NCBI GenBank assembly: GCA_964651335.1
Contig: CAZYVT010000014.1
Location: 365 to 64,364, forward strand
Direction: 5' to 3'
Length of the DNA: 64,000 nucleotides
DNA from: an uncultured Enterobacteriaceae bacterium
Lineage (GTDB): Bacteria; Pseudomonadota; Gammaproteobacteria; Burkholderiales; SG8-39
Shown: one piece after another, positions 6,001-24,564 of the stretch
How the letters are laid out: every line of letters starts with the position of its first letter
Numbering within the stretch: the stretch's first letter is position 1
The notes under the pieces: model-generated
Told to the model about the DNA's origin: nothing
What the model saw: only the letters and a program-made list of their open reading frames with translations
Database searches by the model: none
Program-made: the position numbers and the translations under genes

Positions 6001-9000
6001 CAGGCTCGCCTGATCCGGGTCGACGCCGAGGTGACTCAACTGCACTTGCGCCTGGGTCCATGCCAATGTGGCCGCGCGGTCGAAGGCCGTCGCGTCGTGA
6101 TGCTTGTCGGCCAGGTCCAGCACATCGCCACGGGACGATGCAACGACCGTCCAGAATGCGATGCGCACCACCCTGCCCGGCGGAACCCGAACGCGGCGGC
6201 GCAGCGCGAAAACGGGATCGAGGACGGTGCCGACGGTATTGGAGAGCGGCCGGCCATCCATCACGGCGATCGGCGCCCGAACCTCGCGCCCGCGACCGAG
6301 GAAGCGGGCCCTGTCGGTTTCGATCTCCGGCTCGCCCACCGCTTCGCCTTCGACGAAGGCAAGATGCGCCGCCCAGATTTCGGGCTCGGTGGGCGAGCGG
6401 CGCCGCCGGGTCGCCAGGATGGCGCCGATCCTGGCGAGATATTCGGTTTGCACGAAGAGCTTGGAAAAGGCCGGGTGCGCAGTGTCGGCGGCGGGCGGCG
6501 CCAGCACCAGCTCGGCGTAGGAGGTGAGCTCGATGTCCCGGGCCCGGTTGCCCGCATTCGCGACCGAGACGCGGCGGACCTCGGCGTTGTCCTCCGGCGA
6601 GACGACCACGTCCAGGATCGTGGTGATCGTTCCATCGCGCCGGATGAACTCGGCACGATCCTCGGTGAACGTGACGTCGTAACTGTCCGGTTCGATGCCG
6701 CTCGGCTGATAGCCCGCGGACCACACCTCGCCGCTCTCCACGTCTCGCAGAAAGACGTAGGCGCCCCAATCGTCGCGCGTGACGTCTTCGCGCCAGCGCG
6801 TGATCCCGAGCTCGCCCCAGCGGCTGTACCCGGAACCGGCACCCGTCAGCATCACGGCGTAGCGGCCGTTCGAAAGCAGGTGCGCCTCCGGCGTGACGTG
6901 GTGCGCGGAGCGGAACCGTCGCACCGCAGGAAGCTCCAGGTCGCGGACCGTGGATGCCGTCTCTACTTCCTCGGCCCTGGGATGAGCCACCGCGACATCG
7001 CGCGGCGTGCGTTCGTGCAGGAGAAGCTCGGTCGCCTGCACGATCGGCTCGGCATGAAACCGTGCCCGCATCTTGCCGTCGAGGAGACCGTTGGCGATGG
7101 CGACCACCGTCATGCCCTGATGGTGCGCCATGAAGGCGCGGACGATCGTGACCTCTTTCCCCTCGGGCAGACGCGTGCGCGTGTAATCCAGCGCCTCGTA
7201 GAAGCCGTAGCGGCCATGCGCGCCCAGCGCGGCGAATCGGGCGTAGTTGCGCGCCGCCGCTCCGGGATCGACCATGGCTGCGAGCGCCGTCGCGTAGGGT
7301 GCGACGACTGCGTTTTCGCCGAGGCCGCGTTTGAAACCCAGGCCCGGGACTCCGAAGTTGGAATATTGATACGTGAGCTCCAAGTCGCGGACGTTGTAGG
7401 CGGATTCTGAAATGCCCCAAGGCACACCGAGCGCGGCGCCATAGGCCATCTGGCGGCGCACGACGAGACGGCTGGTCTCCTCGATCAGGCTGCCAGCCGG
7501 TGCGCGCATCACGAGCGACGGCATCAGGTACTCGAATATCGATCCCGACCAGGAGATCAGCGCTGCGCCGCGTCCCACCGGTGTGACGGCGCGCCCAAGC
7601 CGGAACCAGTGCTGCGGCGGGACGTCGCCCTTGGCGATCGCCACGAAGCTCGCCAGGCGCGCCTCGGAGGCGAGCAGGTCGTAGCAGCTCGGGTCGAGAC
7701 TGCCCTCCGCGACCCGGTAACCGATCGCGAGGAGCTTGCGGTCCGGGTCGAGGAGAAAGCCGAACTCCATGGCGTTGGCCATGGCCCGCGCCGTCGTCTC
7801 GAGCGTCCCAAGTCGCCGTTCCAGGGAGCGGGCGGCGTCGGCGGTCTGTGTAACGTCCCGGCGGTGACTTTCGATCGACGCTTGCGTCGCCTCCGCCCAG
7901 AACAGCATTTCGGCGCCGGCGTCGTCGCCGCGTTCGCTCGCCAGCGTGCGGGCGATGTCGACCATGGTTGTGGCCTGAGGCGTGGCCTGCGCCAATCGGG
8001 CAGCGACATCCTTCGGCGATCTATGGTGTTCGGGGAGCGGGTCCTCGCGGAGAGCGGCCGCCAGCGCATCGAGCGCATCGCCAAGCTGTTGCCGCGTGAT
8101 CGTCTGCGTCCGCCGGTCGTCGGGAAGCCCCTGCAAGGTTTCGCGCGTGAGATCCAGACCGTCTTCGATGCCGGCAAATAATTCGGGACCTGCCTGCGGG
8201 CGGCGAATCCACTCCCTGCAGGCGATTGCAAGAGCGATCAGGTGCCCGGCCAGATTGCCGCTATCCACCGAAGAGATGTATTGCGGGTCCAGCGGGCGGA
8301 GGTCTCGCGTGTCGTACCAGTTGTAGAAGTGGCCGCGGAACCGCTGCAGGCGGCCCATCGTCGCGAATGTCGCTTCCAGCCGGTCGACGGTCTCCGTCGT
8401 CCCGGCCCATCCGAAGTCGCGGGCGCTGACCGCCGAGAGGAGGTAGAGGCCGAGATTGGTGGGAGAGGTCCGGTGCGCGACAACCGGCTTCGGGTCTTCC
8501 TGGAAATTGTCCGGCGGGAGCATGTGGTCCTCGGCCGTGACGAAGGTCTCGAAGAAGCGCCAGGTGCGGCGCGCGACCAGCCGCAAAGCACGGGCGTCCG
8601 CATCCGAGAGCGACAGGCGACCCGCCACGAGCGGCGACAGGCTGGTCCATCGCGCGATCGCCGGCGATGCGATCCAGGCGAGCACGAACGGCGCCGCCAC
8701 CGGCCAGGCGTCACTCCTTACCCACCAGACGACGATCGCAGTGACGATGCCGATCGCGACACCACCGTTCATCTGCCGATAGAACCCGGGGAGGTCGAGC
8801 CGGGGGCTCACCTTCGCCTGAGCTGCCGTGACCCAGTCGAGCAGATGACGGTGGCTCAAGGACAGACGAAACAGCGTCCGTCCGATCGCATCGGCCATCA
8901 ACCATGCCTGGTGCGCGAGGAACACGACCAGCAATGCGGACTGGGACAAAGCGAGGCCGACATCCGCGGCGAGGGCGCGCAGGTGGCTGCGTGCCGTGAT

Positions 9001-13287: not shown

Positions 13288-14226
13288 ATGGATGCCGCGC
13301 GCGTCCGAGCGATTCACGTCATCGATTCTCATACCGGTGGCGAGCCGACCCGCGTCGTCGTGGAAGGGGGGCCGCCGCTCGGCTCCGGAACGCTCCCGGA
13401 ACTGCGCGACCGGTTCCGCGCTGAATTCGACCAATTTCGTTCAGCCGTCGTGAATGAACCGCGAGGCTCGGACGTTACGGTCGGCGCGCTGCTGGTTGAG
13501 CCATCGGACCGGTCCTGCGTTGCCGGCGTCATCTTTTTCCACAACGTCGGGTACCTGGGAATGTGCGGCCACGGCATGATTGGGGTAGTGGCCACGCTCA
13601 AGCATCTCGGCCGCATCGGGACCGGCGCTCACCGCATCGACACGCCGGTGGGGCCAGTCACCGCCACGCTGCATCCGGATGGACAGGTCTCGATCGAAAA
13701 CGTACCCAGCTTCCGCAAGAGCAAGGCTGCGACAGTGGACGTGCAGGGGGTGGGACGCGTTGCCGGCGATATTGCGTGGGGCGGCAACTGGTTCTGTCTG
13801 GTCGAACAGCACGGCCAGGAACTGACGGTGAACAACGTCGCACAGCTCACCGAGTTCGCGTGGAAGATTCGCCAGGCCGTCAATGCGCAGGGATTCCCGG
13901 AGATTGACCATATCGAGTTGTTCGGTCCTCCCCGCGCCCCAGGGGCCCACGCCCGCAATTTTGTGCTTTGCCCCGGCAAGGCGTATGACCGCTCGCCCTG
14001 CGGAACGGGCACCAGCGCCAAGCTGGCGTGTCTCGCCGCTGACGGCAAGCTTGCCGAGGGCGTGACATGGGTCCAGGAGAGCATCATCGGCAGCACGTTC
14101 GCCGGCAGGTACCGGCGTGATGGCGACAAGATCATTCCCATCATCACCGGACGCGCGTTCGTCACTGGCGAGGCCCGGCTTCTGCTCGATGAGAGCGACC
14201 CTTTCTGCTGGGGAATCCGACGCTAA
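13288..14226 (+). CDS. Proline racemase / 4-hydroxyproline 2-epimerase family enzyme
   Basis: N-terminal HVIDSHTGGEPTRVV. Both catalytic Cys contexts are present (LGMCGHG and DRSPCGTGTSA), i.e. the Cys/Cys epimerase-racemase type. 312 aa. Confidence 0.85.
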   Translation: MDAARVRAIHVIDSHTGGEPTRVVVEGGPPLGSGTLPELRDRFRAEFDQFRSAVVNEPRGSDVTVGALLVEPSDRSCVAGVIFFHNVGYLGMCGHGMIGVVATLKHLGRIGTGAHRIDTPVGPVTATLHPDGQVSIENVPSFRKSKAATVDVQGVGRVAGDIAWGGNWFCLVEQHGQELTVNNVAQLTEFAWKIRQAVNAQGFPEIDHIELFGPPRAPGAHARNFVLCPGKAYDRSPCGTGTSAKLACLAADGKLAEGVTWVQESIIGSTFAGRYRRDGDKIIPIITGRAFVTGEARLLLDESDPFCWGIRR

Positions 14227-14287
14227 CGCCATCGGGAACGACAGACTCAGTTCCATCGACCGAAACTCTAGAAACGGAACCTGCCGC

Positions 14288-15571
14288 ATGCGACATCAAC
14301 CGATCGATCCCCAACTCTTTGCCGAGAACCGTCAGCGCCTGCGGGAGTTGCTGCTCCCCGGTTCGCTGGCCGTTGTCAACGCCAATGACCTTCTGCCGGC
14401 CAACTCCGATGCCGTGCTGCGCATGCAACCCAACTCGGACCTGTTTTACCTGACCGGGATCGAGCAGGAGGAAAGCGTTCTGCTGCTGGCCCCGGATGCG
14501 TTCGATGACAAGCTGCGGGAGGTGCTGTTCCTTCGCGAGCCCAACGAGCGCCTCAAGATCTGGGAGGGGCACAAGCTGTCGAAGGTAGAGGCGACGAGGA
14601 TCTCGGGCATTCAGACCGTCAAGTGGCTATCGGAATGGCCGGCCGAATACCGCTCGCTGATGTGCGAGGTGGAGCATGTCTATCTCAACAGCAATGAGCA
14701 CAAGAGGGCGGTGGTGGAGGTTCAGACCCGGGACGCCCGTTTCATCGCCGACACCCAGGCCGAATTTCCGCTGCACGATTACAAGCGGCTGACGCGCCTG
14801 ATGCACCAGCTTCGGGCGTCCAAGAGCGAGCGAGAGCTGCAACTGGTTCGACAGGCCGTTGCCATCACCGGCAAGGGATTCCGGCGGGCCGCAAGGTTCG
14901 TCAAGCCGGGCGTGGCGGAGTACGAAATTGAAGCGGTTTACGCCCACGAGTTCACTCGCCGGCGCGGGAAGTTCGCGTACAGCCCGATCATCGCGTCGGG
15001 GCCCAACGCGTGCGTGCTCCATTACCTGAATAACGACCGGCGGTGCAGGGGCGGCGAGTTGCTCCTGCTGGACGTCGCAGCCTCTTACGCCAATTACAAC
15101 GCGGACCTCACCCGAACCATCCCGGTCGGCGGCCGATACAGCCGCCGCCAGAAGCGGGTCTACAACGCCGTTCTTCGCGTGATGAAAGCGTCGATCAAGG
15201 GCGCGGTGGTCGGCAAGCTGCACCGCGACTGGCAGAAGGAAGCCCAGGCGATGATGAATGACGAGTTGCTTTCGCTGGGGCTGATCAAGCGGGCGGAGAT
15301 CAGGAAGCAGGCCGCCGACGAGCCGGCCTGCCGGAAATACTTCATGCACGGGCTGGGCCATCTGCTCGGACTCGATGTGCATGACGTGGGATTCATGAAC
15401 CAGCCATTCGCGCCCGGATGGGTGCTCACCGTCGAGCCGGGGATCTACATCGCCGATGAAGGCTTCGGCGTCCGCATCGAGAACAACATTGTCGTCACGG
15501 AGGACGGCCCGGTCGATCTCACGGCGGGCATTCCGGTCGAAGCGGACGAAATCGAAGACCTGATGGCTTGA
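14288..15571 (+). CDS. Xaa-Pro aminopeptidase (M24B, aminopeptidase P family)
   Basis: Pita-bread metal-ligand contexts are present: LLLDVAASYANYNADLTRT, HGLGHLLGLDVHD, LTVEPGIY, VRIENNIVV. Start moved to MRHQPIDPQLF (14288), which lies after the stop of the upstream gene. Confidence 0.85.
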   Translation: MRHQPIDPQLFAENRQRLRELLLPGSLAVVNANDLLPANSDAVLRMQPNSDLFYLTGIEQEESVLLLAPDAFDDKLREVLFLREPNERLKIWEGHKLSKVEATRISGIQTVKWLSEWPAEYRSLMCEVEHVYLNSNEHKRAVVEVQTRDARFIADTQAEFPLHDYKRLTRLMHQLRASKSERELQLVRQAVAITGKGFRRAARFVKPGVAEYEIEAVYAHEFTRRRGKFAYSPIIASGPNACVLHYLNNDRRCRGGELLLLDVAASYANYNADLTRTIPVGGRYSRRQKRVYNAVLRVMKASIKGAVVGKLHRDWQKEAQAMMNDELLSLGLIKRAEIRKQAADEPACRKYFMHGLGHLLGLDVHDVGFMNQPFAPGWVLTVEPGIYIADEGFGVRIENNIVVTEDGPVDLTAGIPVEADEIEDLMA

Positions 15572-15586: not shown

Positions 15587-16282
15587 ATGAACGACATGCG
15601 CCGTTGGACCGCGGTCGTCGTCTACGCGACCGCCATGGCGCTGCTCGAATCGGCGGCGGTCACGTATCTGCGAAACCTCCTGGGCCGCATCGATCCGTAC
15701 CAGCCCGCGCCACTGCCCGTCGCGGTGGCGCTGATGTACACGGAAATAGCGCGCGAGACGGCGACGCTGGTGATGCTGGCCGCGGTGGCATGGCTGGCCG
15801 GGCGCAGTGGGCGGGGCCGCCTGGGCTACTTTCTGGTCGTCTTCGGCGTTTGGGATATTTTCTACTACGTCTTCCTGGTGCCCTTGAGCGGCTGGCCTCG
15901 CTCTCTGCTGGACTGGGACATCCTGTTCCTGATCCCTCTGCCCTGGTGGGGACCGGTGCTGGCGCCGGTCAGCATCGCCGCGCTGATGATCGCGGGTGGT
16001 ACCCTGATCAGCCAGTTCGGGCACGGGGAGGGGGCGCTGTGGCCTGGACGCGTGTCGTGGGGGCTGAGCTTGAGCGGCGCGCTGCTTGCGCTCTACGTCT
16101 TCATGGCCGATGCCCTGCATGCACCGGACTGGAGCGAAGCGACGCTGCGGAATATCCTGCCGATCGAATTCAACTGGCCGCTGTTCGCAATTGCGCTGGC
16201 ACTGATGAGCGTGCCCATCCTCGACATGTTGCGGCGGCACTCCGCGAACATTGGATCGGACTCGGCGGGTGGGTCCCGCTGA
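15587..16282 (+). CDS. Integral membrane protein of unknown function
   Basis: 231-aa ORF starting 16 nt after the aminopeptidase. It has about 6 hydrophobic helices (e.g. LGYFLVVFGVWDIFYYVFLV). No family recognised. Confidence 0.5.
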   Translation: MNDMRRWTAVVVYATAMALLESAAVTYLRNLLGRIDPYQPAPLPVAVALMYTEIARETATLVMLAAVAWLAGRSGRGRLGYFLVVFGVWDIFYYVFLVPLSGWPRSLLDWDILFLIPLPWWGPVLAPVSIAALMIAGGTLISQFGHGEGALWPGRVSWGLSLSGALLALYVFMADALHAPDWSEATLRNILPIEFNWPLFAIALALMSVPILDMLRRHSANIGSDSAGGSR

Positions 16283-16301: not shown

Positions 16302-16961
16302 TCACCACAGCGGTCTGCTCAGGTGTTCCGTGAACTCCGAGAACATGACGTTGAAGCTGATGCTGATCCGCTCCTCGCCGCTGCGGTTCGCATCGACCGA
16401 ATGCTGCAGCCAGGCGGGGAACAGGAGCAGGGTCCCGTTCGCCACGCGCACCACCACCTGATCGGTATTCTCGGTGCTGAGTTCCGTCACCGGCGGCCGC
16501 AGGATGGCGGTCTGCACCCGTGGATCGTGGAAATTGATCGTATCTGCGCCCGCCCCGGAGCGCAGGTAGTAAGCGCCGCTCAGGAAGTTGTTGGGATGGC
16601 TGTGGGCGCGATGCGCCGCGCCCGCGGCGAGAACATTCGCCCAGCAACCGGTGATCTCCAGCGCGTCGTACCCGATGCGCAGGAAGCGGAGCACGCTCAA
16701 GGCGGCGTCCTCCACGCAGGACACAAGATCCTTCAACGCGTCCAGCTGGTGCAGGTTCTGCTCCGACTGCCACCCCTCGCCCCGTGAAAGCGGAGGCAGC
16801 GCCCGCCTGATTGCGGCAAGCGAATTCAGGATCCCTGCATCCATCGCTTGCCGGAGTTCCGGCTTGAGCTGGAACTTCCACACCAGGGTCGGAAACATCG
16901 GCACTACGTCCGAAGCTTCGAGCCAGCGCTGCGCTCTGCCCGATCTGCTGTTCTGGTGCAT
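16302..16961 (-). CDS. TIGR02466 / 2OG-Fe(II) oxygenase-like protein (PF13759-like)
   Basis: MFPTLVWKF... near the N-terminus, HSHPNNFLSGAYYL (His-x-His metal motif), and GTLLLFPAWLQHSV...ERISISFN at the C-terminus. Start is uncertain (ATG 16961, or ATG 16898 at MFPTL). The longer track ORF overlaps the upstream methyltransferase. Confidence 0.7.
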   Translation of the reverse strand: MHQNSRSGRAQRWLEASDVVPMFPTLVWKFQLKPELRQAMDAGILNSLAAIRRALPPLSRGEGWQSEQNLHQLDALKDLVSCVEDAALSVLRFLRIGYDALEITGCWANVLAAGAAHRAHSHPNNFLSGAYYLRSGAGADTINFHDPRVQTAILRPPVTELSTENTDQVVVRVANGTLLLFPAWLQHSVDANRSGEERISISFNVMFSEFTEHLSRPLW

Positions 16962-16989
16962 CTGAGGAAAAGGCAACTTCGTTACGACC

Positions 16990-17628
16990 TCATTCACGCT
17001 GCACGGGAACTCGCCACACGCTCGCCAGCCAGGGCTGCTGTTCGCGCGGCAGGCCGGACGGGCGGTAATAGTGCACGAGTTCAAAATACCCCGCAGCCGA
17101 CAGGTAACGGCGCCAGGTGTCCAGGTCATGGTACGCGCCGTAGCGTCCGCGGTTCCAACCTTCCTCGTTGTGGCCGTGTGGGTTCGAACTGAACAGCACG
17201 CCACCCGGTTTCAGGCTCGCATGCAGTTCCAGCAACACGCGCGGCAACTCCTGGCTGGGTACATGAAACAGCGCGGCGTTGGCGAATACGCCGTCGAAAT
17301 GGCGATCCGGCAGTTCCAGCTTGAGGAAGTCCTGCTGCCACACTTCGCAGCCGCTGTGCGCGCGCGCCATAGCAGCCAGCCGCGCGGCGCCTTCCAGTCC
17401 TACCGCGATATGACCGAGACCGGCAAACGCCTTGAGGTCGCGCCCGGGCCCGCAGCCGAAGTCGAGGATCGTGAAAGGAGGCTCGCCTTCGATGTGCTGC
17501 AACAGCGCCGCGATGTTCTGGCTGACGTCATGGTTGCGCGTGCCTTCCCAGAAATCCCCGGCACGCTGGTTATAGTGTTCCAGTGTGCGCTCGACGAGCC
17601 CTTCGAGATCATGCGAACCCGGTTTCAT
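16990..17628 (-). CDS. Class I SAM-dependent methyltransferase
   Basis: Motif I ILDFGCGPGRDL, an acidic post-I residue, and motif LKPGGVLF. 212 aa. Confidence 0.8.
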   Translation of the reverse strand: MKPGSHDLEGLVERTLEHYNQRAGDFWEGTRNHDVSQNIAALLQHIEGEPPFTILDFGCGPGRDLKAFAGLGHIAVGLEGAARLAAMARAHSGCEVWQQDFLKLELPDRHFDGVFANAALFHVPSQELPRVLLELHASLKPGGVLFSSNPHGHNEEGWNRGRYGAYHDLDTWRRYLSAAGYFELVHYYRPSGLPREQQPWLASVWRVPVQRE

Positions 17629-17639
17629 GTGCGCAGGAT

Positions 17640-18908
17640 CTATCGATTCCCGGACGCGTGCAATGAAACCTCGGGGCGGAGCTTGAGGTCGAGCCGTTTC
17701 TGTGCGCTGCGAAGTGAGGCGACGACATCGGCGGCGGCTCGTCCGCGCGCAAAGATGAAGCCCAGGTACCCTGTGCCGTCAGGCGGAGGGGCCACAATCT
17801 GCCCGCGCTCGACGGTAATCGGAATGCCGGTGATGCCTCTCACCGCAAGCGCTTCCTTCAGGCCGCCCAGACCGTCGTAAATGCCGCGCGCGGGGATCGG
17901 GATCATCATCACACCGCAGGCCGCGCGATGGCGCGGCGCGGGCAACGCGCGGCCGAGCGCATGGCGCAGGATCAATTCCTCCAGCGTCATGCCGAGCGCG
18001 TGCGTGAGCACCGCCCCGCATAGGCCCCCGATCGAGCGCGGCGCGATTTCAAGCAGCCAGATCCCGCGGGCGTTGATGCGAAACTCGGCATGCACCGGCC
18101 CGTTCGCAAGGCCGGCATGACCGCACGCTTGCGCGACTTCGCGTGCCGCGGCGCGCTGCACGCGGGGCGACAGATGCGACGGCGTGGCATAGATCGTTTC
18201 CTCGAAATACGGGCCGTCGAGCGGATCGGGCTTGTCGAACAGCGCGAGCACTCGCAGCCTGCCATTCACCAGCAGGCCTTCGAGCGCGTACTCGCGGCCG
18301 GGGATGAATGCCTCGATCACCAGTCCGAGTTGCGCGGCGTTGCGATCGCCCCTTTTTTGAATGCGCCGCACTTGCGCTACAGCGCGGATCAACTCGAGGC
18401 GGCTGTCGGCGCGAATCACGCCGCGGCTCGCCGCGAGGCGGCGCGCCTTGATCACGGCGGGAAGCGGCACCGCGCGCAGGGCGGCCGGGTCGGCGTCTGA
18501 GCGCAGTCGCCGGAACCACGGGCAGTTCATGCGGTGACGCTTCAGCAGCGATCGGAAAGCGAGCTTGTCGCGCAGCAGGCGCACGCTGCGCACCGGATTG
18601 CCCGGCAAATTCAGCCTGCGACTGAGCAGCGCGGCGAGCTCGACACCATGATCGTCCACCGCGAGCACCGCGTCGGGCTTGCGCGCGAGGTGACGCAATG
18701 CGAGGGCGCGCGCGCGCTGCGGCTGATCGAACGGAAGTGCCAGCAGCGGATGCAGCTCCCACTGCGGCGCGAGGCGATGGCAATAGTCGGCGGCGGCGAT
18801 GATTTCGACGCCGAGCCTCCTGGCCGCAGCGCGGAAGGCGTCGTTGCGATACGAGGCGGCGGGCAGCAGCAGCAGTACTTGTTGCGTTGGCGCGGGCAGC
18901 GAAACCAT
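17640..18908 (-). CDS. ATP-grasp domain enzyme (carboxylate-amine / L-amino-acid-ligase-like)
   Basis: LRDKLAFRSLL, PAVIKARRLAASRGV, IEAFIPGREYALEGL, HAEFRINARGIWLLEIAPRSIGG are typical ATP-grasp elements. Start set at MVSLPAPTQQ (18908), 13 nt after the upstream stop. Confidence 0.75.
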   Translation of the reverse strand: MVSLPAPTQQVLLLLPAASYRNDAFRAAARRLGVEIIAAADYCHRLAPQWELHPLLALPFDQPQRARALALRHLARKPDAVLAVDDHGVELAALLSRRLNLPGNPVRSVRLLRDKLAFRSLLKRHRMNCPWFRRLRSDADPAALRAVPLPAVIKARRLAASRGVIRADSRLELIRAVAQVRRIQKRGDRNAAQLGLVIEAFIPGREYALEGLLVNGRLRVLALFDKPDPLDGPYFEETIYATPSHLSPRVQRAAAREVAQACGHAGLANGPVHAEFRINARGIWLLEIAPRSIGGLCGAVLTHALGMTLEELILRHALGRALPAPRHRAACGVMMIPIPARGIYDGLGGLKEALAVRGITGIPITVERGQIVAPPPDGTGYLGFIFARGRAAADVVASLRSAQKRLDLKLRPEVSLHASGNR

Positions 18909-18921
18909 GTCTGGGCGGCGC

Positions 18922-20358
18922 TCAGAAAGCCGCCAGCTGCTGATGGGTCGGCTCAGCGCAGCAAAACCACGGCTCGGACAGCCGCGGAATCGCCCGGTTC
19001 GCGCCGTTGAGGGCCGGCGGCGTCGCGGTTTGGCCGAGCGCCGCGTGCGCCATGCGCCAGATCGCGGCGAAGACCTCGCGCCGCGGCAGCGCCTGCGTTT
19101 CGGCGTGCCCGACAAAATCCTGCAGCGCCTGCTGCAGCCGGTCAACGCGCGGGTCTCGGTGCCACCACGGATAGCCGAGGATTTCTGCGTCGAACGGCTG
19201 GAGCAGATTGCGAAACCCCGGCAACTCGAGCAGCTCCGACCCCTCGGGCACCAGCAACCGGATCGTGAGCTGCACCGGCGGCACGTTTTCGATCAGGTCG
19301 AGCCTGGCCAGGGTTTCGAGCAGCGCACCGTAGCCTTCGAGCGTAGTCCACGGCGTGAAGGCGACGAAAGTCGCGGCGAACGCGATGTCTGCCGCGCGCA
19401 GCAGCGCCACCGCGCGCTCGAAATCGGCGCAGGTGTGATTTTTGGCGAGAATTTCCAGGATGCGGTCATCCACGGTTTCCGCCGCGGAGGTGATGAAAAG
19501 ACAGCCGCTGCGTTTGAACTCCGGCAGCAACGCCGCATGATCGATCAGGTGCTGGATCTTGATCGTCGCGTCCCAGGTGAGCGCCGGAAATTCGGCGTGC
19601 AGCGCGCGCACGATCCTGAGCGCGTGCGTCGGGCCGTTGAGAAAATCCGGATCGCCGAACGCGATGTGCTGCGCGCCCTGCGCGACCTGCTGGCGTATGT
19701 CGGCGAGCACGATTTCGGCGGGCACGGCGCGAAAGCGCCCCTGATACACCGGCACGACCGGGCAATGGCGGCACCAGTGCTTGCAGCCACGGCTCGCTTC
19801 GGCAAATCCGACCGTCCTTTCGCTGCCGTCCGGAAGCACGAGCCGGGCGTAGCGCGCGAGCGGCGGCAGATTCGCGCGCTGCGGAACCGCGAAATCGACC
19901 TTGCCGCGGTGGATCACTGCTGCCGCGGGGACAGCGCCGGCCGCGCCATCGCGCGCGCGCCGTGCGGCGGCGACCAATGCCGGCTCGAATTCGCCGCCGA
20001 TGACGTCGGTCACGCCGCGTGCGTGCAGCAGCGCGGCGTTCATCGGTGCGTAGAGCCCGTAGGCGCAAAGTCGCGCTCCCGGTGCGAGCGTGCGGATGCG
20101 GGGCAGCGCCTCGAGCGCGATTCGCGTCGCCGTGTGCATGCCGAGATAGAGCGCAACGAGCGCCGCGTCGCGCCACTCGATGCTGTCGAGCTTCTGCAGC
20201 GACAGGTCGAGGCAGCTCACGCTGAACCCCGCGTGCTCGAGCAGCGCCGCCGGCTCCGCGAGGGCGAACGGCTGGCGACCGAGGTCATAGGGGTTGATCA
20301 GGATGACCCTGGCGGCGGCAACGCGAGAATGATCACCGTGAAGACTTGCGCCATCCAT
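18922..20358 (-). CDS. B12-binding-domain radical SAM protein with CCAEP C-terminal tail (CUAEP/CCAEP-tail family)
   Basis: SRGCKHWCRHCPV is the CxxxCxxC radical SAM cluster motif. The N-terminal segment VILINPYDLGRQPFALAEP...CLDL is B12-binding-like. The C-terminus is ...SEPWFCCAEPTHQQLAAF (tgc tgc, no in-frame TGA). Start at MDGASLHG (20358), 8 nt after the DUF971 stop. Confidence 0.8.
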   Translation of the reverse strand: MDGASLHGDHSRVAAARVILINPYDLGRQPFALAEPAALLEHAGFSVSCLDLSLQKLDSIEWRDAALVALYLGMHTATRIALEALPRIRTLAPGARLCAYGLYAPMNAALLHARGVTDVIGGEFEPALVAAARRARDGAAGAVPAAAVIHRGKVDFAVPQRANLPPLARYARLVLPDGSERTVGFAEASRGCKHWCRHCPVVPVYQGRFRAVPAEIVLADIRQQVAQGAQHIAFGDPDFLNGPTHALRIVRALHAEFPALTWDATIKIQHLIDHAALLPEFKRSGCLFITSAAETVDDRILEILAKNHTCADFERAVALLRAADIAFAATFVAFTPWTTLEGYGALLETLARLDLIENVPPVQLTIRLLVPEGSELLELPGFRNLLQPFDAEILGYPWWHRDPRVDRLQQALQDFVGHAETQALPRREVFAAIWRMAHAALGQTATPPALNGANRAIPRLSEPWFCCAEPTHQQLAAF

Positions 20359-20366
20359 GACAGGCT

Positions 20367-20774
20367 CTACTTGGTCTTCGGCCGCGCCTCGAAGCCCGGC
20401 TGCGGCTCGCGGCTGGCGCCGGCTTCCTCCAGCCGCTTCAGGTAGCGGCGCCACATCTCGTCCTGGTGCAGGCCGTACTCGTAGAGCAGGTCCCACGAAT
20501 AGATGCCGGTGTCGTGACCGTCGGAGAAGCACGGCTGGATGGCGTAAGTGCCGATCGGCTCGATGGCGGTGATGTCGACGTTTTGCTTGCCGGGCTGGAG
20601 CACTTCCTGCCCCGGCCCGTGGCCGCGCACCTCCGCGGAGGGCGAATAAACGCGCAGGAATTCGCACGGCAGCCTGAACGTCTTGCCGTCGGTAAACGAG
20701 ATCTCCAGCACGCGCGATTTCTGGTGCAGCTTGATTTCTGTCGGTGCCGGCGTGCCCTTGTCGTGTTCAGTCAT
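20367..20774 (-). CDS. DUF971 domain protein (gamma-butyrobetaine hydroxylase N-terminal-like)
   Basis: LEISFTDGKTFRLPCEFLRVYSPSAEV...IGTYAIQPCFSDGHDTGIYSWDLLYE matches the DUF971 pattern as I remember it. Confidence 0.8.
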   Translation of the reverse strand: MTEHDKGTPAPTEIKLHQKSRVLEISFTDGKTFRLPCEFLRVYSPSAEVRGHGPGQEVLQPGKQNVDITAIEPIGTYAIQPCFSDGHDTGIYSWDLLYEYGLHQDEMWRRYLKRLEEAGASREPQPGFEARPKTK

Positions 20775-20938
20775 CCCGGTTTTCCCTTGCCATCATCGCA
20801 GGAGCATCATAAGCGAGTTGCCAGTCGAGAATAACTCTGCCACGTTCAGGGTCTTACAGACTTCGCTGCGGCTGACGCGTTGGTACAATGAAGAAACGGG
20901 CTGTCGCGTCGGCGACGGTCGTCCTGTGGAGTTTGTTC

Positions 20939-21220
20939 ATGGCGCGCATGGTCAACTGCATCAAGCTCGGGCGGGAGGCGGACGGGCTCGATTTCCCGCC
21001 CTATCCGGGCGAGCTCGGCAAGCGCATCTTCGAGAGCGTGTCGAGAGAAGCATGGAAGCAGTGGCTCGAGCACCAGAAGATGCTGGTGAACGAGGGCCAG
21101 ATGAACCTCGCCGACAAGAAGGCGCGTGATTACCTCGCGCAGCAGATGGAAAAATATTTCTTCAGCGGCGGCGTGGATGTGGCCGCCGGCTATATCCCGC
21201 CGGGACAGAAACAGAAGTAG
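20939..21220 (+). CDS. yggX: Oxidative damage protection / Fe(2+)-trafficking protein YggX
   Basis: [52 protein letters not shown] is collinear with E. coli YggX ([39 protein letters not shown]...). Internal ATG 20939 of ORF 20888..21220 used. Confidence 0.9.
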
Positions 21221-21315
21221 AGCGCAGACTCGCGGGGGAGAGCATTCCGCCGCGGACTGCGTCGACCGCCTCATAGACACCAGCCTTGGCGGTCCGTTCT
21301 CACAGGATTCCCACC

Positions 21316-23163
21316 GTGCGTCTTCGTCTTGCCCTGTTGCTCGCGACCGCGGCCTGGATCCTGCCGGCGCCGGCCGAATCGCCGGCCGACCGCTGGAACC
21401 TGGCCGATCTCTATTCTTCCGTAGCGGCATGGAACGCCGATGCCGCCCGGCTGGATGCGCAAATGGCGGAATTCGGGGGCTGCAAAGGTCGTCTTGGCGA
21501 GGCTGCCGCGCGCTTCAAGCAATGCCTCGATTTGCAGGCGGAGATGACGAAGCGTTTCTTGCGCATGGCAGTGTATGCAGGGGAGCGACTGGCGGAGGAC
21601 ACCGGCTCCGCCGCGCAGCTCGAGCTGGATCAGAGAGCCGATGTCCTCGGCAACCGGCTCAGGGAAGCCGCCGCATTCGTCAATCCGGAGATCCTGCGCG
21701 TGGGCAGGGAGCGCGTCGCCCTCTTTCTGGGGCAGGACCCGTCGCTTGCGATCTACCGATACCCGCTCGAGCAAATTCTGCGGTCCGCGCCGCATACGCT
21801 GAACGACGAGGGTGAGGCGCTGGTTGCCGCGTTCGGCCTGATGAACGATGCCGGCGGATCGACCTATTCCATCCTGACCAATGCCGACATCCCGTGGCCC
21901 ACGCTCAAGCTGTCGACCGGCGAGGAGGTGAGGCTCGATGCCTCGGCGTACACGAAGTACCGGGAGGCCGCGAACCGCGACGACCGCAAGCGCGTGATGG
22001 ACGCCTTTTTCGGCACCTTCAAGACCTATGAGCGGACCATCGGCGTCACGTTCTACTCGCAATTGAAACAGGACGCCGTCTACAGCAGGGTGCGAAAGTA
22101 TCCGGACTCGATCACGCGTGCGCTCGACAGGAACCGGTTGCCCGTCGCCGTCTTCGACACGCTGATCGCGCAGACCAACGCCAACCTGCCCACCCTGCAT
22201 CGCTACTTCCGGCTGCGCGCGAGACTGCTGGGTGTCGACCAGATGCGCTACTACGACATTTACCCGCCGCTGGTCCATGGCAACTTCGGATTTCCACTCC
22301 CGCTCGGCAGGCAGCTGGTGCTCGAGGCGGCTGCGCCATTGGGTCAGGACTATGTCGCCGCGCTGCGGGCCGGCCTCGACAATCGCTGGATGGATTCCTA
22401 TCCGCGCCCGCGCAAGCAGTCGGGGGCGCACGTGGCCGGAGCCGCCTACGACGTGCATCCTTACGTCCTGATGAACTACAACGACGACTACGAATCGGTG
22501 ACCACGCTGGCGCACGAGTGGGGCCACGCCATGCACTCGTACCTCGCCAATCGCGCCCAGCCGTTCGTGACCGCCGGCTACGCGACGTTCATTGCCGAGA
22601 TCGCCTCGACGTTCAACGAAGCGCTGCTGCTCGACCGCATGCTGAAGACCGCGCAGGGCGACAGCGATCGCCTGTTCTACCTCGGAAACGCGCTTGAACA
22701 GTTGCGAGGAACCTTCTTCAGGCAGGCGATGTTCGCCGAGTTCGAGCGTAGCGTGCATGCGCAGGTGGATCGCGGCGAGGTGCTGTCCGGCGAGGCGCTG
22801 AGCAAGACCTATTGCGACATTCTGAAGCGTTACCACGGCGTGGCCGCGGGCGTGGTGGCGATCGACGACCGGTATTGCGTCGAATGGGCCTACATTCCCC
22901 ATTTCTACGACGGGTTTTACGTCTACCAGTACGCCACTTCGATCGCTGCAAGCGCGCTGCTTGCTCAGAGAGTCAATAACGGCGAACCGGGAGCGCTCCA
23001 GCGCTATCTCGACCTGCTGCGCGCCGGGGGTTCGGACGATCCGTACGATCTTGTCAGGAAAGCCGGCGTGGACCTTGCGACACCGGCGCCGTATCAGGCG
23101 CTGGTGGCGCGAATGAATGCGATCATGGACGAGATCGAGGCGATTCTGGCGCAGCGGAAGTGA
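21316..23163 (+). CDS. Secreted M3-family oligoendopeptidase (PepF-like)
   Basis: HEWGHAMH is the HExxH zinc motif in an M3 context (TLAHEWGHAMHSYL). A GTG at 21316 follows AGGA and gives the signal peptide MRLRLALLLATAAWILPAPA. The antisense 1098-aa ORF 21271..24567 is rejected. Confidence 0.85.
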   Translation: MRLRLALLLATAAWILPAPAESPADRWNLADLYSSVAAWNADAARLDAQMAEFGGCKGRLGEAAARFKQCLDLQAEMTKRFLRMAVYAGERLAEDTGSAAQLELDQRADVLGNRLREAAAFVNPEILRVGRERVALFLGQDPSLAIYRYPLEQILRSAPHTLNDEGEALVAAFGLMNDAGGSTYSILTNADIPWPTLKLSTGEEVRLDASAYTKYREAANRDDRKRVMDAFFGTFKTYERTIGVTFYSQLKQDAVYSRVRKYPDSITRALDRNRLPVAVFDTLIAQTNANLPTLHRYFRLRARLLGVDQMRYYDIYPPLVHGNFGFPLPLGRQLVLEAAAPLGQDYVAALRAGLDNRWMDSYPRPRKQSGAHVAGAAYDVHPYVLMNYNDDYESVTTLAHEWGHAMHSYLANRAQPFVTAGYATFIAEIASTFNEALLLDRMLKTAQGDSDRLFYLGNALEQLRGTFFRQAMFAEFERSVHAQVDRGEVLSGEALSKTYCDILKRYHGVAAGVVAIDDRYCVEWAYIPHFYDGFYVYQYATSIAASALLAQRVNNGEPGALQRYLDLLRAGGSDDPYDLVRKAGVDLATPAPYQALVARMNAIMDEIEAILAQRK

Positions 23164-23286
23164 AGCAAGCGAGGCGCCCGTTGACAGCCCCTGCCAGCGG
23201 GCCTCAAGCTCACTTTCCGCTGTTGCTCCCGAGCAGGGTCCCAGTCCGAAGATGATGTACTGCCTACAGAGCGTGATTCCCGCCCC

Positions 23287-24564
23287 GTGACCAGGCGCCT
23301 GGGCAAATTCGAGCTCATAAAAGTGCTTGGCAAGGGCGCCTCCGGCACGGTCTATCTCGCGCTCGACACGTTCACCGGACAGGAAGTCGCGCTCAAGGTG
23401 CTCGACCCGGAAGTAGTCGCCGCGCCGCAATTCGACAGGACCCACACCCAGCAGTTCATGAACGAGGCCTCGCTCGCCGGGCGGATCTCGCACCCGCACA
23501 TCGCGTCGATACTGGAAGCTGCGGTGGACGAGCAGACGGGCGGCTACATCGCGATCGAGTACGTGTCGGGCGGCGATCTTTCCCAGTTCGCCACGCCCGA
23601 GCGCCTGCTCGGCGTGGAGGACGCGATCGAGGTCGCGTTCAAGTGCTGCGGGGCGCTCGACTACGCCTTCCGCCAGGGGATCGTGCATCGCGACATCAAG
23701 CCGGCGAACATCATGGTCTCGAGCGGCACCAACATCAAGGTGGCCGATTTCGGCGCCGCATGCCTGCACAAGGCACAGGACGCGGAAGGTGCCATCATCG
23801 GCTCCCCGTTCTACATGTCGCCCGAGCAGATCACGCGCCAGCCCCTGGGGTATCACAGCGACATGTTTGCGCTGGGGGTGGTGCTCTACGAGCTCTTCAC
23901 CGGCAGTCGGCCCTTCTCCGGGCAGAGCGTGCTCGAGCTTTTCGATGCGATCCAGAACAGGACCCCGGTTGCGCCGAGCGCGCTGCGGCCCGGGATCAGC
24001 ATGGACGTGGACCGCATCCTGTTTCAAATGCTCGGAAAGTCGCCCGGCGAGCGCTACCCGACGTGGGCCGACCTGGCGCTCGACCTGGCCGATGTCGGGC
24101 GGCTGAGCGTGTACCAGAAGGCGATTCCCGATCGAGAGAAATACGTCGCCCTGCGGAAAAACGCGATTCTCGAGCGCCTGGACGATGCGGAAATCTGGGA
24201 GATGGTTCTCGCGGGCCGCTGGATCCGCGTGCCTGCGCAGACGGTGATCGTGCGCGAGGATGAGCCGGGGGCCAGCCTTTTCTTTCTGGGCAGCGGCAAC
24301 GTCAAGGTGACCAAGCAGGGTCGGTTGCTGAACGTCTTGCAGACGGGGGAGTACTTCGGCGAGATGGCCTATATCAAGGCAGGAGCGATCCCCCGCCAGG
24401 CGACGGCCGAGTCGATCACGGATGTGCTGCTTGCGGAGTTCGAGGCTGCCGCTCTTCAGAAGGTCAGCACGAACTGCCAGTTGCAGCTGACATCCGCCCT
24501 GCTGCATTCCCTGGTCGAGCGTCTCGCGCTCACCAACGAGCGCTTTACCCGGGCGGTGACCTGA
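23287..24564 (+). CDS. Ser/Thr protein kinase fused to a C-terminal cyclic-nucleotide-binding domain
   Basis: Hanks kinase motifs are present: GKGASGTVY, VALKVL, HRDIKPANIM, DFG, SPEQ. The C-terminal CNB domain shows FFLGSGNVKV...GEYFGEMAYI...PRQATAES (phosphate-binding-cassette-like). Confidence 0.85.
   Translation: MTRRLGKFELIKVLGKGASGTVYLALDTFTGQEVALKVLDPEVVAAPQFDRTHTQQFMNEASLAGRISHPHIASILEAAVDEQTGGYIAIEYVSGGDLSQFATPERLLGVEDAIEVAFKCCGALDYAFRQGIVHRDIKPANIMVSSGTNIKVADFGAACLHKAQDAEGAIIGSPFYMSPEQITRQPLGYHSDMFALGVVLYELFTGSRPFSGQSVLELFDAIQNRTPVAPSALRPGISMDVDRILFQMLGKSPGERYPTWADLALDLADVGRLSVYQKAIPDREKYVALRKNAILERLDDAEIWEMVLAGRWIRVPAQTVIVREDEPGASLFFLGSGNVKVTKQGRLLNVLQTGEYFGEMAYIKAGAIPRQATAESITDVLLAEFEAAALQKVSTNCQLQLTSALLHSLVERLALTNERFTRAVT

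Follow-up and report, generated by a model that had tools for sequence, protein, structure and literature searches.

A CCAEP-tail radical SAM enzyme related to ArsL, encoded with an ATP-grasp ligase beside iron/Fe-S trafficking genes

The radical SAM enzyme ArsL functions in arsinothricin biosynthesis. It makes methylthioadenosine (MTA) and a 3-amino-3-carboxypropyl (ACP) species, and its C-terminal Cys motif binds As(III) (bioRxiv 10.1101/2024.02.01.577332); an Fe-C(gamma) organometallic species is formed (bioRxiv 10.64898/2026.04.29.721666). Both papers set Dph2 beside ArsL. Plasmid-borne clusters that encode proteins with an RCCLKC tail contain, in five of six genera sampled, an ATP-grasp gene, a small arsM, and a gene for a COG0523 metallochaperone GTPase. 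The ATP-grasp enzyme of the Bacillus RCCLKC cluster carries the LAL_C2 domain.

Two other kinds of system bear comparison. L-amino acid ligases (BL00235/3VOT, BacD, DdaF, RizA, and TabS) make dipeptides from antimetabolite amino acids; BL00235 favours Met. LipA, with its partner NfuA, is a radical SAM enzyme that needs cluster regeneration.

The window, a stretch of 64,000 nucleotides from an uncultured Enterobacteriaceae bacterium, contains at 16302-20774 five minus-strand open reading frames separated by 8, 13, 11, and 28 nt, and a divergent yggX gene upstream (Table 1). A sequence-only reading had proposed these five genes as an operon for an uncharacterised modification or biosynthetic pathway. 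Its gene positions and gaps agree with those found here, and its assignments of the DUF971, ATP-grasp, class I methyltransferase, and TIGR02466 proteins hold in Pfam and NCBIfam searches; the CCAEP-tail radical SAM assignment and the CKHWCRHC motif are borne out as well.

Table 1. Features of the locus, in window coordinates
Feature	Position	Strand	Basis or remark
yggX (Fe(2+)-trafficking protein)	20939..21220	+	PF04362, E 4e-40
DUF971-yggX divergent intergenic region, 164 bp	20775..20938		presumed promoters for both genes
DUF971 / GBBH-like_N protein, 135 aa	20367..20774	-	PF06155, 110 bits
CCAEP-tail radical SAM enzyme, 478 aa from ATG	18922..20358	-	NF040546 (rSAM_CUAEP), 600 bits (cut-off 500)
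CKHWCRHC (CxxxCxxC, [4Fe-4S]-binding motif)	19762..19785	-	translation
CCAEP tail motif	18949..18963	-	translation
L-amino-acid-ligase-type ATP-grasp enzyme, 422 aa	17640..18908	-	ATPgrasp_N + ATP-grasp_4 + LAL_C2 (Pfam search)
Class I SAM-dependent methyltransferase, 212 aa	16990..17628	-	Pfam Methyltransf_25/11/23
TIGR02466 / PF13759 2OG-Fe(II)-oxygenase-like protein, 219 aa	16302..16961	-	TIGR02466, 107 bits (cut-off 62.5); PF13759 also matched

Public gene calls on another contig of the same organism (L182) give identical lengths for all five proteins. The yggX frame opens at 20888 with a likely start, MARMVNC, at 20939; given that start, the earlier figure of 164 bp for the divergent spacer is correct. 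Spacing and common strand suggest that the five genes probably form one transcript, a reading to which the scans for promoters (none predicted, and no sigma-70 consensus in 20775-20938) and for terminators (five terminator-like sites versus 3.4 expected) add no information. By position, the promoters for the DUF971 gene and yggX presumably lie in this spacer. All five genes have a third-position GC of 0.75-0.88, similar to that of flanking genes, in line with the host-like composition noted earlier. Overall, the context of the radical SAM and ligase genes is chromosomal, housekeeping-like, and vertically inherited, whereas the ArsL-type clusters sit in an arsenic island on a plasmid.

How much of this set is conserved? 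Among about 170 related loci, all five genes are found together in this organism and in one other lineage (L167), which repeats the same six-gene order around a radical SAM enzyme only 66% identical. The earlier view of five genes as one pathway stands in part: the radical SAM gene is linked to those for the ATP-grasp enzyme, DUF971, and YggX, but only rarely to those for the methyltransferase and oxygenase. What is conserved is the pairing of the CCAEP/CUAEP-tail radical SAM enzyme with the L-amino-acid-ligase-type ATP-grasp enzyme, and an iron or Fe-S trafficking gene adjoins the two. Some lineages have further genes nearby: Thermomicrobium roseum encodes an aminotransferase and an MFS transporter, L175-L178 an ABC exporter, and about 12 loci an RND efflux system.

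In 44 of 67 beta-proteobacterial loci, the radical SAM gene is followed immediately by the ATP-grasp gene. Homologues of the ligase with 42-47% identity adjoin distant radical SAM family members in 17 of 80 loci; the ATP-grasp gene is missing from about one-third of the former group and about two-thirds of the latter. Reciprocal look-ups starting from the ATP-grasp enzyme recovered the radical SAM gene and DUF971 in all three contexts, and its ladder of identities parallels that of the radical SAM enzyme. Going by this linkage, the ligase is a dedicated partner. Among solved structures it most closely matches the L-amino acid ligase BL00235 (PDB 3VOT, E 8e-38), in keeping with the carboxylate-amine/L-amino-acid-ligase type first suggested; BacD and DdaF match more weakly. 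As in the known ligase systems, the same domains occur in an enzyme paired with one that probably makes an unusual amino acid. Unlike those systems, the window contains no warhead pathway, exporter, or self-resistance gene, and the ligase gene is vertically conserved across many Betaproteobacteria, whereas typical antibiotic clusters are patchy.

The methyltransferase and the TIGR02466 oxygenase are optional members of the cluster. They may well be co-transcribed passengers with general functions, leaving DUF971, the radical SAM enzyme, and the ATP-grasp enzyme (with YggX) as the functional system; the odds of this come close to even. Just 2 of 39 loci have the methyltransferase gene next after the ATP-grasp gene, and 3 of 44 have the oxygenase gene nearby; neither is present in the closest relatives (L001, L002, and L082, 81-89% identity) or in any of 80 distant loci. 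The methyltransferase itself is highly conserved, with more than 120 cluster representatives at least 80% identical. Its gene is mostly found away from this cluster, and in L168-L172 its contexts are unrelated. Copies 81-83% identical adjoin genes for a trypsin-like protease, ABC permeases, or a sulfatase, which counts against a dedicated tailoring role. The oxygenase matches PDB 3BVC and 2RG4, both uncharacterised. Against passenger status stand the gaps of just 11 and 28 nt in the window, the repeated gene order in L167 despite the divergence there, and the presence of a methyltransferase in ArsL-type clusters. Moreover, besides the window and L167, the methyltransferase gene has the radical SAM gene in its vicinity in at least four arrangements (L015/L031/L039; L029; L030; L068), and L003, L019, L020, and L023 have the oxygenase gene close to the cluster.

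The radical SAM enzyme consists of a Rossmann-like N-terminal domain, the radical SAM barrel, a linker of about 55 residues, and the tail SEPWFCCAEPT. CKHWCRHC shows no variation in three alignments (A1, A2, and A3), and the only invariant cysteines in the family alignment are C192, C196, C199, and the tail Cys; no conserved auxiliary-cluster Cys motif is present there. The tail pattern [LM][ST]E.W[FY]C[CU]AEP is kept family-wide. The second residue of its C[CU] pair is interchangeably Cys or Sec, the latter (UGA) in about half of the family representatives: at 50% identity, 44 representatives end in ...W[FY]C and 32 have CCxEP, and the tail codons in T. roseum read TGT-TGA-GCG-GAG-CCG. The AlphaFold model has a pTM of 0.83, with moderate pLDDT (about 62) in the tail. 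The nearest solved folds are AprD4 (6FD2) and TsrM (TM-scores 0.52-0.59; identity 18-21%). For the N-terminus described earlier as B12-binding-like, the corresponding Pfam domain scores only 18 bits against a threshold of 32, though the predicted fold does resemble these two; AprD4 and ArsL, for their part, do not use cobalamin. Profile searches found no SPASM domain in the enzyme and, as the first reading also had it, no precursor-peptide ORF, transporter, or regulator lies within the unit. The family was uncharacterised in Haft 2022, and a literature search found no later characterisation, in agreement with the earlier remark that no function is known to be assigned to it.

By profile scores, ArsL is by far the closest characterised relative. 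The ArsL model NF040542 matches the enzyme with 248 bits (E 2.5e-73, model positions 2-407 of 423), which is under the model's cut-off of 450; every other family scores 1e-10 or weaker. Proteins with the RCCLKC tail are 30-33% identical and collinear to about residue 410. In both, an N-terminal Rossmann-like domain is followed by a barrel with the CxxxCxxC motif, and the extreme C-terminus is rich in Cys. The CCAEP-tail family is thus, at the sequence level, a sister family of ArsL. The tails differ: C[CU]AEP, with two thiol or selenol groups and the extra 55-residue linker, in place of RCCLKC, in which three Cys bind As(III).

A vicinal Cys-Sec pair in a C-terminal tail is a well-known form of redox shuttle, and ribonucleotide reductase and thioredoxin reductase (GCUG) serve as tail models. 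It is conceivable, though unlikely, that the enzyme is a canonical 5'-deoxyadenosyl radical SAM enzyme whose tail is a redox shuttle or H-atom donor rather than a substrate arm. The interchange of Cys and Sec suits this role, as do the near folds AprD4, MiaB, and MgmA, which use 5'-deoxyadenosyl radical chemistry; TsrM, another near fold, acts without reductive SAM cleavage, and the ArsL score below its cut-off points the same way. However, the gulf in E-value between ArsL and every other family, the coincidence in position with the substrate-binding tail of ArsL, and the ligase and metallochaperone partners common to ArsL-type clusters all speak against this reading.

The helper genes provide a second theme. 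Genes of five families that traffic iron or Fe-S clusters (YggX, DUF971, Nfu, IscA-like, and CDGSH) adjoin the radical SAM and ligase genes, the family and the gene order differing between lineages; YggX and DUF971 are those present in the window. Of 80 distant loci, 42 carry at least one helper gene; where 2 kb or more is available on either side, the figure is 21 of 35. About 11 of those 35 have no helper, ATP-grasp, or DUF169 gene. The DUF971 gene precedes the radical SAM gene in 44 of 76 loci (in L174 the order is rSAM-DUF971-ATP-grasp). The DUF971 protein matches PDB 2L6N (E 9e-39) and 2L6P (E 1e-32), and its sequence marks it as orthologous to the DUF971 proteins of Shewanella and Pseudomonas, which have a general part in 'Fe-S cluster maintenance'. 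Of 44 beta-proteobacterial loci, 14 include yggX, and in 19 of 80 distant ones it is the adjacent upstream gene in the same orientation; it is part of the conserved neighbourhood, more than a divergent neighbour. Nfu is encoded immediately 3' of the radical SAM gene in 13 distant loci. As with LipA and NfuA, a radical SAM enzyme is encoded or acts with a dedicated Fe-S carrier; unlike LipA, this family has no conserved auxiliary-cluster Cys motif, and cluster consumption would be purely hypothetical. The ArsL kinship, the family-wide linkage to iron and Fe-S genes, and the place of yggX in the conserved neighbourhood did not feature in the sequence-only reading.

SAM-derived ACP units build known metallophores, with nicotianamine and opine metallophores as analogues. 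Quite improbably, then, the system might serve iron or Fe-S homeostasis itself, through an ACP-derived iron-binding or thiol metabolite or through cluster repair with YggX and DUF971. The span of the helper association across the radical SAM family fits such a function, as do the cofit of DUF971 and YggX as Fe-S maintenance factors and, at L173, a cysteine-desulfurase-like gene and a sulfur transporter. Yet no Shewanella or Pseudomonas member of the radical SAM family was among the matches, despite the orthologous DUF971 there, so DUF971 and YggX probably act independently of the radical SAM enzyme; mutually replacing helper families better suit generic supply, and the well-flanked distant loci that have no partner gene also speak against this function. 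Least probable is a protein modification in the manner of diphthamide, with ACP placed on a target residue before ATP-grasp amidation or ligation (compare Dph6) and methylation (compare Dph5): proposed ACP formation from SAM via a [4Fe-4S] cluster parallels Dph2, and small conserved proteins (DUF971 and YggX) are encoded just upstream, but the enzymes have no homology to Dph2, Dph5, or Dph6, and the fold is not that of Dph2 (the PF04055 barrel with CxxxCxxC is instead that of ArsL), the ATP-grasp enzyme groups with free-amino-acid ligases (3VOT, BacD, and DdaF), the methyltransferase is rarely present, and the neighbouring small proteins vary by lineage, unlike a specific substrate.

Transfer of ACP to a soft acceptor atom is, tentatively, the preferred reading. 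In many extended ArsL-type clusters, too, a radical SAM enzyme is joined by an ATP-grasp ligase and a SAM methyltransferase; their metallochaperone is a COG0523 GTPase rather than YggX, DUF971, or Nfu. Since the window ligase is only 20-27% identical to ATP-grasp enzymes of ars clusters, this parallel is one of shared logic and not proof of orthology. None of 160 family loci contains ars genes (ArsR, ArsM, aquaporin, ArsN, or ACR3), so inorganic arsenite is probably not the acceptor. Counting against ACP transfer are the sub-cut-off ArsL score, two tail Cys rather than three, and the many loci that lack the ligase; the housekeeping-like setting, with no resistance gene, regulator, or transporter in the window, is atypical for an antimetabolite pathway. 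Counting for it are the ArsL kinship, the conservation of the tail, the linkage and type of the ligase, the logic shared with ArsL clusters, and the interchangeable helpers. Transporter, efflux, and aminotransferase genes in some lineages favour a small-molecule product.

From the homology, motifs, and gene linkage of the module, we infer the following scheme. The [4Fe-4S] cluster bound by CKHWCRHC would cleave SAM reductively at the C-gamma-S bond, as in ArsL, to give MTA and a cluster-bound ACP species. The flexible tail would bring a soft nucleophile (a metalloid, chalcogen, or persulfide) to the active site on its Cys-Cys pair, or Cys-Sec in many relatives; given the pLDDT of the tail, this docking stays a proposal. 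Transfer of ACP to the nucleophile would yield a methionine-like amino acid, a 2-aminobutyrate substituted at the gamma position, and the ATP-grasp ligase would join this product to another amino acid. Where the methyltransferase and TIGR02466 oxygenase are co-transcribed, as here and in a few other genomes, they may contribute tailoring steps. YggX and DUF971, or elsewhere Nfu, IscA-like, or CDGSH proteins, would reload or repair a cluster left labile by the organometallic chemistry. Taken together, and tentatively, the family may transfer ACP to a soft atom held on a Cys-Cys tail, with the methionine-like product ligated into a peptide and the helper proteins maintaining the labile cluster.

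Five minus-strand genes lie divergent from yggX and encode a DUF971 protein, a radical SAM enzyme, an ATP-grasp ligase, a methyltransferase, and a 2OG-oxygenase-like protein. The sequence-only reading had proposed them as one operon. Open reading frames were found at exactly the positions it gave, with gaps of 8, 13, 11, and 28 nt, and the five product lengths are identical in independent public gene calls from the same organism (JGI contig, L182). The divergent spacer between the DUF971 gene and yggX is indeed 164 bp if yggX starts at MARMVNC (20939). Consensus promoter and terminator scans gave a signal not above shuffled controls, so it is from spacing only that we infer co-transcription. 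Scans of the window for Rfam families and tRNAs returned no matches. GC3 is 0.75-0.88 in all five genes, like that of the flanking genes; this bears out the earlier remark that their composition is host-like, and on that ground recent horizontal acquisition of the cluster is rejected.

Genes of the radical SAM cluster in the window
Gene	Position	Strand	Feature type
DUF971	20367-20774	-	ORF
radical SAM	18922-20358	-	ORF
ATP-grasp	17640-18908	-	ORF
methyltransferase	16990-17628	-	ORF
2OG-like	16302-16961	-	ORF

Convergent with the operon is a gene (15587-16282, plus strand) for a 231-aa multi-pass membrane protein without a Pfam match, whose stop lies 19 nt from that of the 2OG gene. It occupies the same position in L182, and no match covering at least 40% of its length was found in 80 related loci. 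The outer flanks (13288-15571 and 21286-24564) encode a proline-racemase/hydroxyproline-epimerase-like protein, an M24 Xaa-Pro aminopeptidase, an M3 oligoendopeptidase, and a Ser/Thr kinase; the kinase, which may carry a cyclic-nucleotide-binding domain, was, like that domain, read from sequence only. The M3 peptidase gene is syntenic in one related locus (L081), and the remaining flanking genes are not conserved in related loci. Upstream of the region, at about 6001-11640 on the minus strand, is an open reading frame that, over the stretch inspected, exceeds 1,779 aa.

Gene content was compared across 80 loci with radical SAM relatives at 57-88% identity, mostly from uncultured Burkholderiales and other Beta- and Gammaproteobacteria, using the window proteins as queries together with conservation-weighted ORF calling and tblastn. 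Of the 76 loci with enough sequence, 44 carry DUF971 on the same strand just before the radical SAM gene; among 67 loci, the ATP-grasp gene comes just after the radical SAM gene in 44 and somewhere in the locus in 51. Where at least 3 kb is available on both sides (44 loci), yggX is present in 14, the methyltransferase in four, and the 2OG gene in three. Only two of 39 loci have the methyltransferase immediately behind the ATP-grasp gene. The nearest relatives (L001, 88%; L002, 81%; L082, 89%) keep yggX, DUF971, radical SAM, and ATP-grasp genes, and lack the methyltransferase and 2OG genes. The full order, from yggX through the 2OG gene, recurs once, in L167 (radical SAM 66% and methyltransferase 81% identical), and all five genes are co-located only in the window, L182, and L167. 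Clustering of all ORFs near the enzyme revealed no further family in more than six loci, except for scattered ABC-transporter ATPase genes (23 ORFs in 16 loci) with no fixed position.

By these counts, the five-gene unit, though real in this genome, is uncommon; what is conserved is DUF971, radical SAM, and ATP-grasp, with yggX. The earlier interpretation, a five-gene tailoring pathway, is thus partly supported: its genes stand, its conserved unit shrinks to the three-gene core, and the focus shifts to a radical SAM/ligase/Fe-S-helper module.

The ATP-grasp protein combines ATPgrasp_N, ATP-grasp_4, and LAL_C2 domains (PF13535, 91 bits; PF18603, 44.5 bits; PF18130, 30 bits), and among solved structures its best match is the L-amino acid ligase BL00235 (PDB 3VOT; E 8e-38). 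By homology, it is predicted to be an enzyme of the L-amino-acid-ligase type. Its identity ladder among homologues parallels that of the radical SAM enzyme. Moreover, a reciprocal test that started from the ATP-grasp protein found DUF971 and radical SAM genes in three of three independent contexts, one of them ordered rSAM-DUF971-ATP-grasp.

The same test gave the opposite outcome for the methyltransferase. Among five further contexts, one is a radical SAM cluster (L167), and the others involve a trypsin-like protease, ABC permeases, or a sulfatase. The window protein is a generic class I enzyme whose best solved relative, RPA2492, is uncharacterised; it shares at least 80% identity with more than 120 cluster representatives, with labels that include Gemmatimonadales and Methyloceanibacter. 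This methyltransferase (212 aa) is a slowly evolving gene of many contexts, not one dedicated to this pathway. In L168-L170, its gene and one for a Trypsin_2 protease share 4 nt, with cold-shock, fatty-acid desaturase, and Crp-type regulator genes near. The last operon gene matches TIGR02466 (107.4 bits; cut-off 62.5) and PF13759 (100.1 bits; cut-off 27), and the solved relatives of its product, 3BVC and 2RG4, are uncharacterised. The methyltransferase gene does stand beside the radical SAM gene in several arrangements (L015/L031/L039; L029; L030; L068), and it is nearly an even question whether methyltransferase and oxygenase are mere passengers.

The radical SAM enzyme belongs to NF040546, the NCBIfam family 'CUAEP/CCAEP-tail radical SAM (seleno)protein' (600.2 bits; cut-off 500; residues 18-476 on model positions 1-467 of 468). 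The CxxxCxxC motif and CCAEP tail translate as first described: the cluster motif is CKHWCRHC, and the extreme C-terminus, ...PWFCCAEPTHQQLAAF, has the C[CU]AEP pattern. HMM scans matched no SPASM domain, and the genes stand too close together (8-28 nt) to accommodate a precursor gene within the unit; on both points the sequence-only reading was right, and a RiPP/SPASM maturase is rejected. No auxiliary-cluster cysteine is conserved beyond the tail cysteines in the family alignment. A B12-binding domain (PF02310) scored 18.3 bits, below its cut-off of 32.1. An AlphaFold model (pTM 0.83) has a good core and a low-confidence tail (pLDDT of about 62); its closest solved folds are AprD4 and TsrM. 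The predicted fold resembles B12-dependent enzymes and the B12-independent AprD4 alike.

The family was described as uncharacterised in 2022 (bioRxiv 10.1101/2022.07.06.499078), and literature searches found no later characterisation, in keeping with the earlier statement that it has no assigned function. It is nonetheless large. At E <= 1e-30, a deep search retrieved 498 clusters (representatives at 50% identity), and at least 583 stretches in a one-genome-per-species collection encode a relative. Among the representatives listed, 44 end at '...W[FY]C' and 32 read on into CCxEP; in Thermomicrobium roseum, a TGA codon follows the first tail cysteine and precedes AEP. These endings imply that about half of the representatives are Cys-Sec selenoproteins. 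Public entries ending ...W[FY]C (many of P0121-P0270; L083, 10368-10382) are truncated gene calls in which the next codon is UGA, followed by AEP.

The second-best family for the enzyme, far ahead of the rest, is the model for ArsL, the RCCLKC-tail radical SAM enzyme of arsinothricin biosynthesis (NF040542; E 2.5e-73; positions 2-407 of 423); all other families match at 1e-10 or weaker. The window protein scores 247.6 bits against a cut-off of 450, and so is from a sister family rather than a member. It is collinear with RCCLKC-tail proteins to about residue 410, beyond which come a linker of ~55 residues and its own Cys-rich tail: two cysteines in CCAEP, whereas the ArsL tail has three As(III)-binding cysteines. 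Unlike an arsenic island with ArsL, the window holds none of ArsM, ArsQ/MFS, ArsR, ArsN, or aquaporin. Score, tail, and context therefore rule out ArsL proper. A structure search found no solved ArsL.

To our knowledge, ArsL is the only PF04055 radical SAM enzyme so far shown to make a 3-amino-3-carboxypropyl (ACP) species rather than a 5'-deoxyadenosyl radical. Canonical 5'-deoxyadenosine chemistry with a redox-active tail is one alternative for the CC/CU-tail enzymes (those ending in a Cys-Cys or Cys-Sec pair); the fold search returned only generic class-B-like radical SAM enzymes, and with ArsL as the nearest sister family we consider this alternative unlikely. ArsL cleaves SAM at C-gamma-S to yield methylthioadenosine (MTA) and the ACP species; As(III) is bound on the C-terminal RCCLKC motif; and the product, hydroxy-arsinothricin, is then methylated by ArsM (bioRxiv 10.1101/2024.02.01.577332). 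At the unique iron, an organometallic Fe-C(gamma) intermediate is reported to form (bioRxiv 10.64898/2026.04.29.721666). In 160 CC/CU-tail loci, there were no matches to ArsR, aquaporin, ArsN, ACR3, ArsC, ArsD, ArsI, or COG0523 GTPase, a few weak generic methyltransferase matches to ArsM, and one match to the MFS query. Inorganic arsenite is therefore an unlikely acceptor for these enzymes.

The canonical arsQML cluster of Pseudomonas amygdali (plasmid; L179) contains neither a ligase nor a COG0523 GTPase. Both an ATP-grasp protein and a COG0523 metallochaperone GTPase are encoded in RCCLKC plasmid clusters of Klebsiella (L084), Pantoea (L181), Alicyclobacillus (L180), Bacillus cereus (L085), and Priestia (L086), all five with a GNAT/ArsN1-type acetyltransferase gene nearby. 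The Bacillus ATP-grasp protein carries LAL_C2, and in Klebsiella, Pantoea, and Alicyclobacillus a small ArsM is found beside an MFS transporter. A radical SAM enzyme grouped with an LAL-type ligase, a methyltransferase, and a metal chaperone is thus found again in the ArsL family, the sister of NF040546. Relative to the window proteins, these ligases are only 20-27% identical, and the methyltransferases show generic similarity only. This gene content suggests an undescribed arsinothricin-peptide pathway; literature searches found nothing on arsinothricin with ATP-grasp, or on such a peptide pathway.

The window DUF971 protein (PF06155, 110.5 bits) is closely related to stand-alone proteins of Shewanella and Pseudomonas (2L6N, E 9e-39; 2L6P, E 1e-32), which large-scale fitness data tie to Fe-S cluster maintenance with Mrp, BolA, and YggX (bioRxiv 10.1101/072470). 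The methyltransferase and 2OG genes are missing from a distant set of 80 metagenomic loci, whose family members are mostly of the Sec type and 40-50% identical. There, 19 loci have yggX directly upstream of the radical SAM gene; a gene for a NifU-like Fe-S carrier is directly downstream in 13, and present in 20 in all; and a CDGSH iron-sulfur protein gene is divergent in nine. An orthologue of the LAL-type ligase (42-47% identical to that of the window) is encoded in 17 of these loci, typically in the order CDGSH / rSAM-Nfu-ATP-grasp. Of the 80 loci, 42 have one or more Fe/Fe-S trafficking genes within 3 kb; among the 35 flanked by 2 kb or more on each side, the count is 21. Further recurrent genes in the beta-proteobacterial set are an IscA-like gene and DUF169. 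Five iron/Fe-S trafficking families (YggX, DUF971, Nfu, IscA-like, and CDGSH) thus alternate beside the enzyme, in differing orders and lineages, which indicates functional coupling. Because these families substitute for each other, generic support of the cluster is a likelier role for them than that of a specific protein substrate.

Such company could also mean that the enzyme has a role inside iron/Fe-S homeostasis itself, a reading that we consider quite improbable. Diphthamide-like protein modification is the most doubtful alternative. DUF971 or YggX as the specific substrate protein is rejected because the helper families swap between lineages.

Several neighborhoods have further features. 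Cys-rich DUF169 (PF02596) stands beside radical SAM and ATP-grasp genes in two independent sets: beta-proteobacterial (L007, L011, L035, L041, and L062), often between the two genes; and distant (L106, L123, L140, L143, L149, and L158). Searches found no solved relative of DUF169 and no literature link with radical SAM. The ATP-grasp gene is followed in L082 (8378-10231) by a second, unrelated radical SAM gene and ClpP, and in L173 (7259-11245) by a HAD hydrolase gene, with a cysteine-desulfurase-like Aminotran_5 gene and a YeeE/YedE-type sulfur transporter near. In one Sec-type sub-clade (L104, L113, L118, L126, L129, L130, L132, L134, L137, L153, and L156), with neither Fe-S helper nor ligase, the radical SAM gene lies between enoyl-CoA hydratase and an OMP-MFP-RND efflux operon.

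The system resembles that of ArsL but differs from it in tail, in partners, and probably in acceptor atom. Homology and linkage allow a tentative mechanism, still less probable than not, built on ArsL-type ACP chemistry. SAM would be cut at C-gamma-S, and the ACP group moved to a soft atom held on the Cys-Cys (or Cys-Sec) arm, giving a methionine-like gamma-substituted 2-aminobutyrate; the ligase would then join this product in an ATP-dependent step. Methylation and oxygenation would be optional, in this lineage, and YggX and DUF971 would keep the labile cluster going. A bolder proposal is a long shot: that CC/CU-tail proteins form a second and far larger group of radical SAM enzymes with non-canonical ACP transfer, making a C-chalcogen or C-metalloid bond on a Sec/Cys swinging arm; that this chemistry consumes the cluster's unique iron or makes it unstable, so that the enzyme would be the first defined dedicated client of DUF971 and of YggX, the enigmatic Fe(II)-trafficking protein; and that the product goes to a ligase that makes from it a new peptide metabolite in environmental Betaproteobacteria.

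Together, these results tie the sister family of ArsL (NF040546), large and with about half of its representatives selenoproteins, to an L-amino-acid ligase and to interchangeable iron/Fe-S traffickers. The Klebsiella, Pantoea, and Bacillus plasmid ArsL clusters with ATP-grasp may yield arsinothricin peptides. For the radical SAM/ligase/Fe-S-helper module, the relation to ArsL provides a testable mechanism; and the module in turn is a possible biochemical handle on YggX and DUF971.
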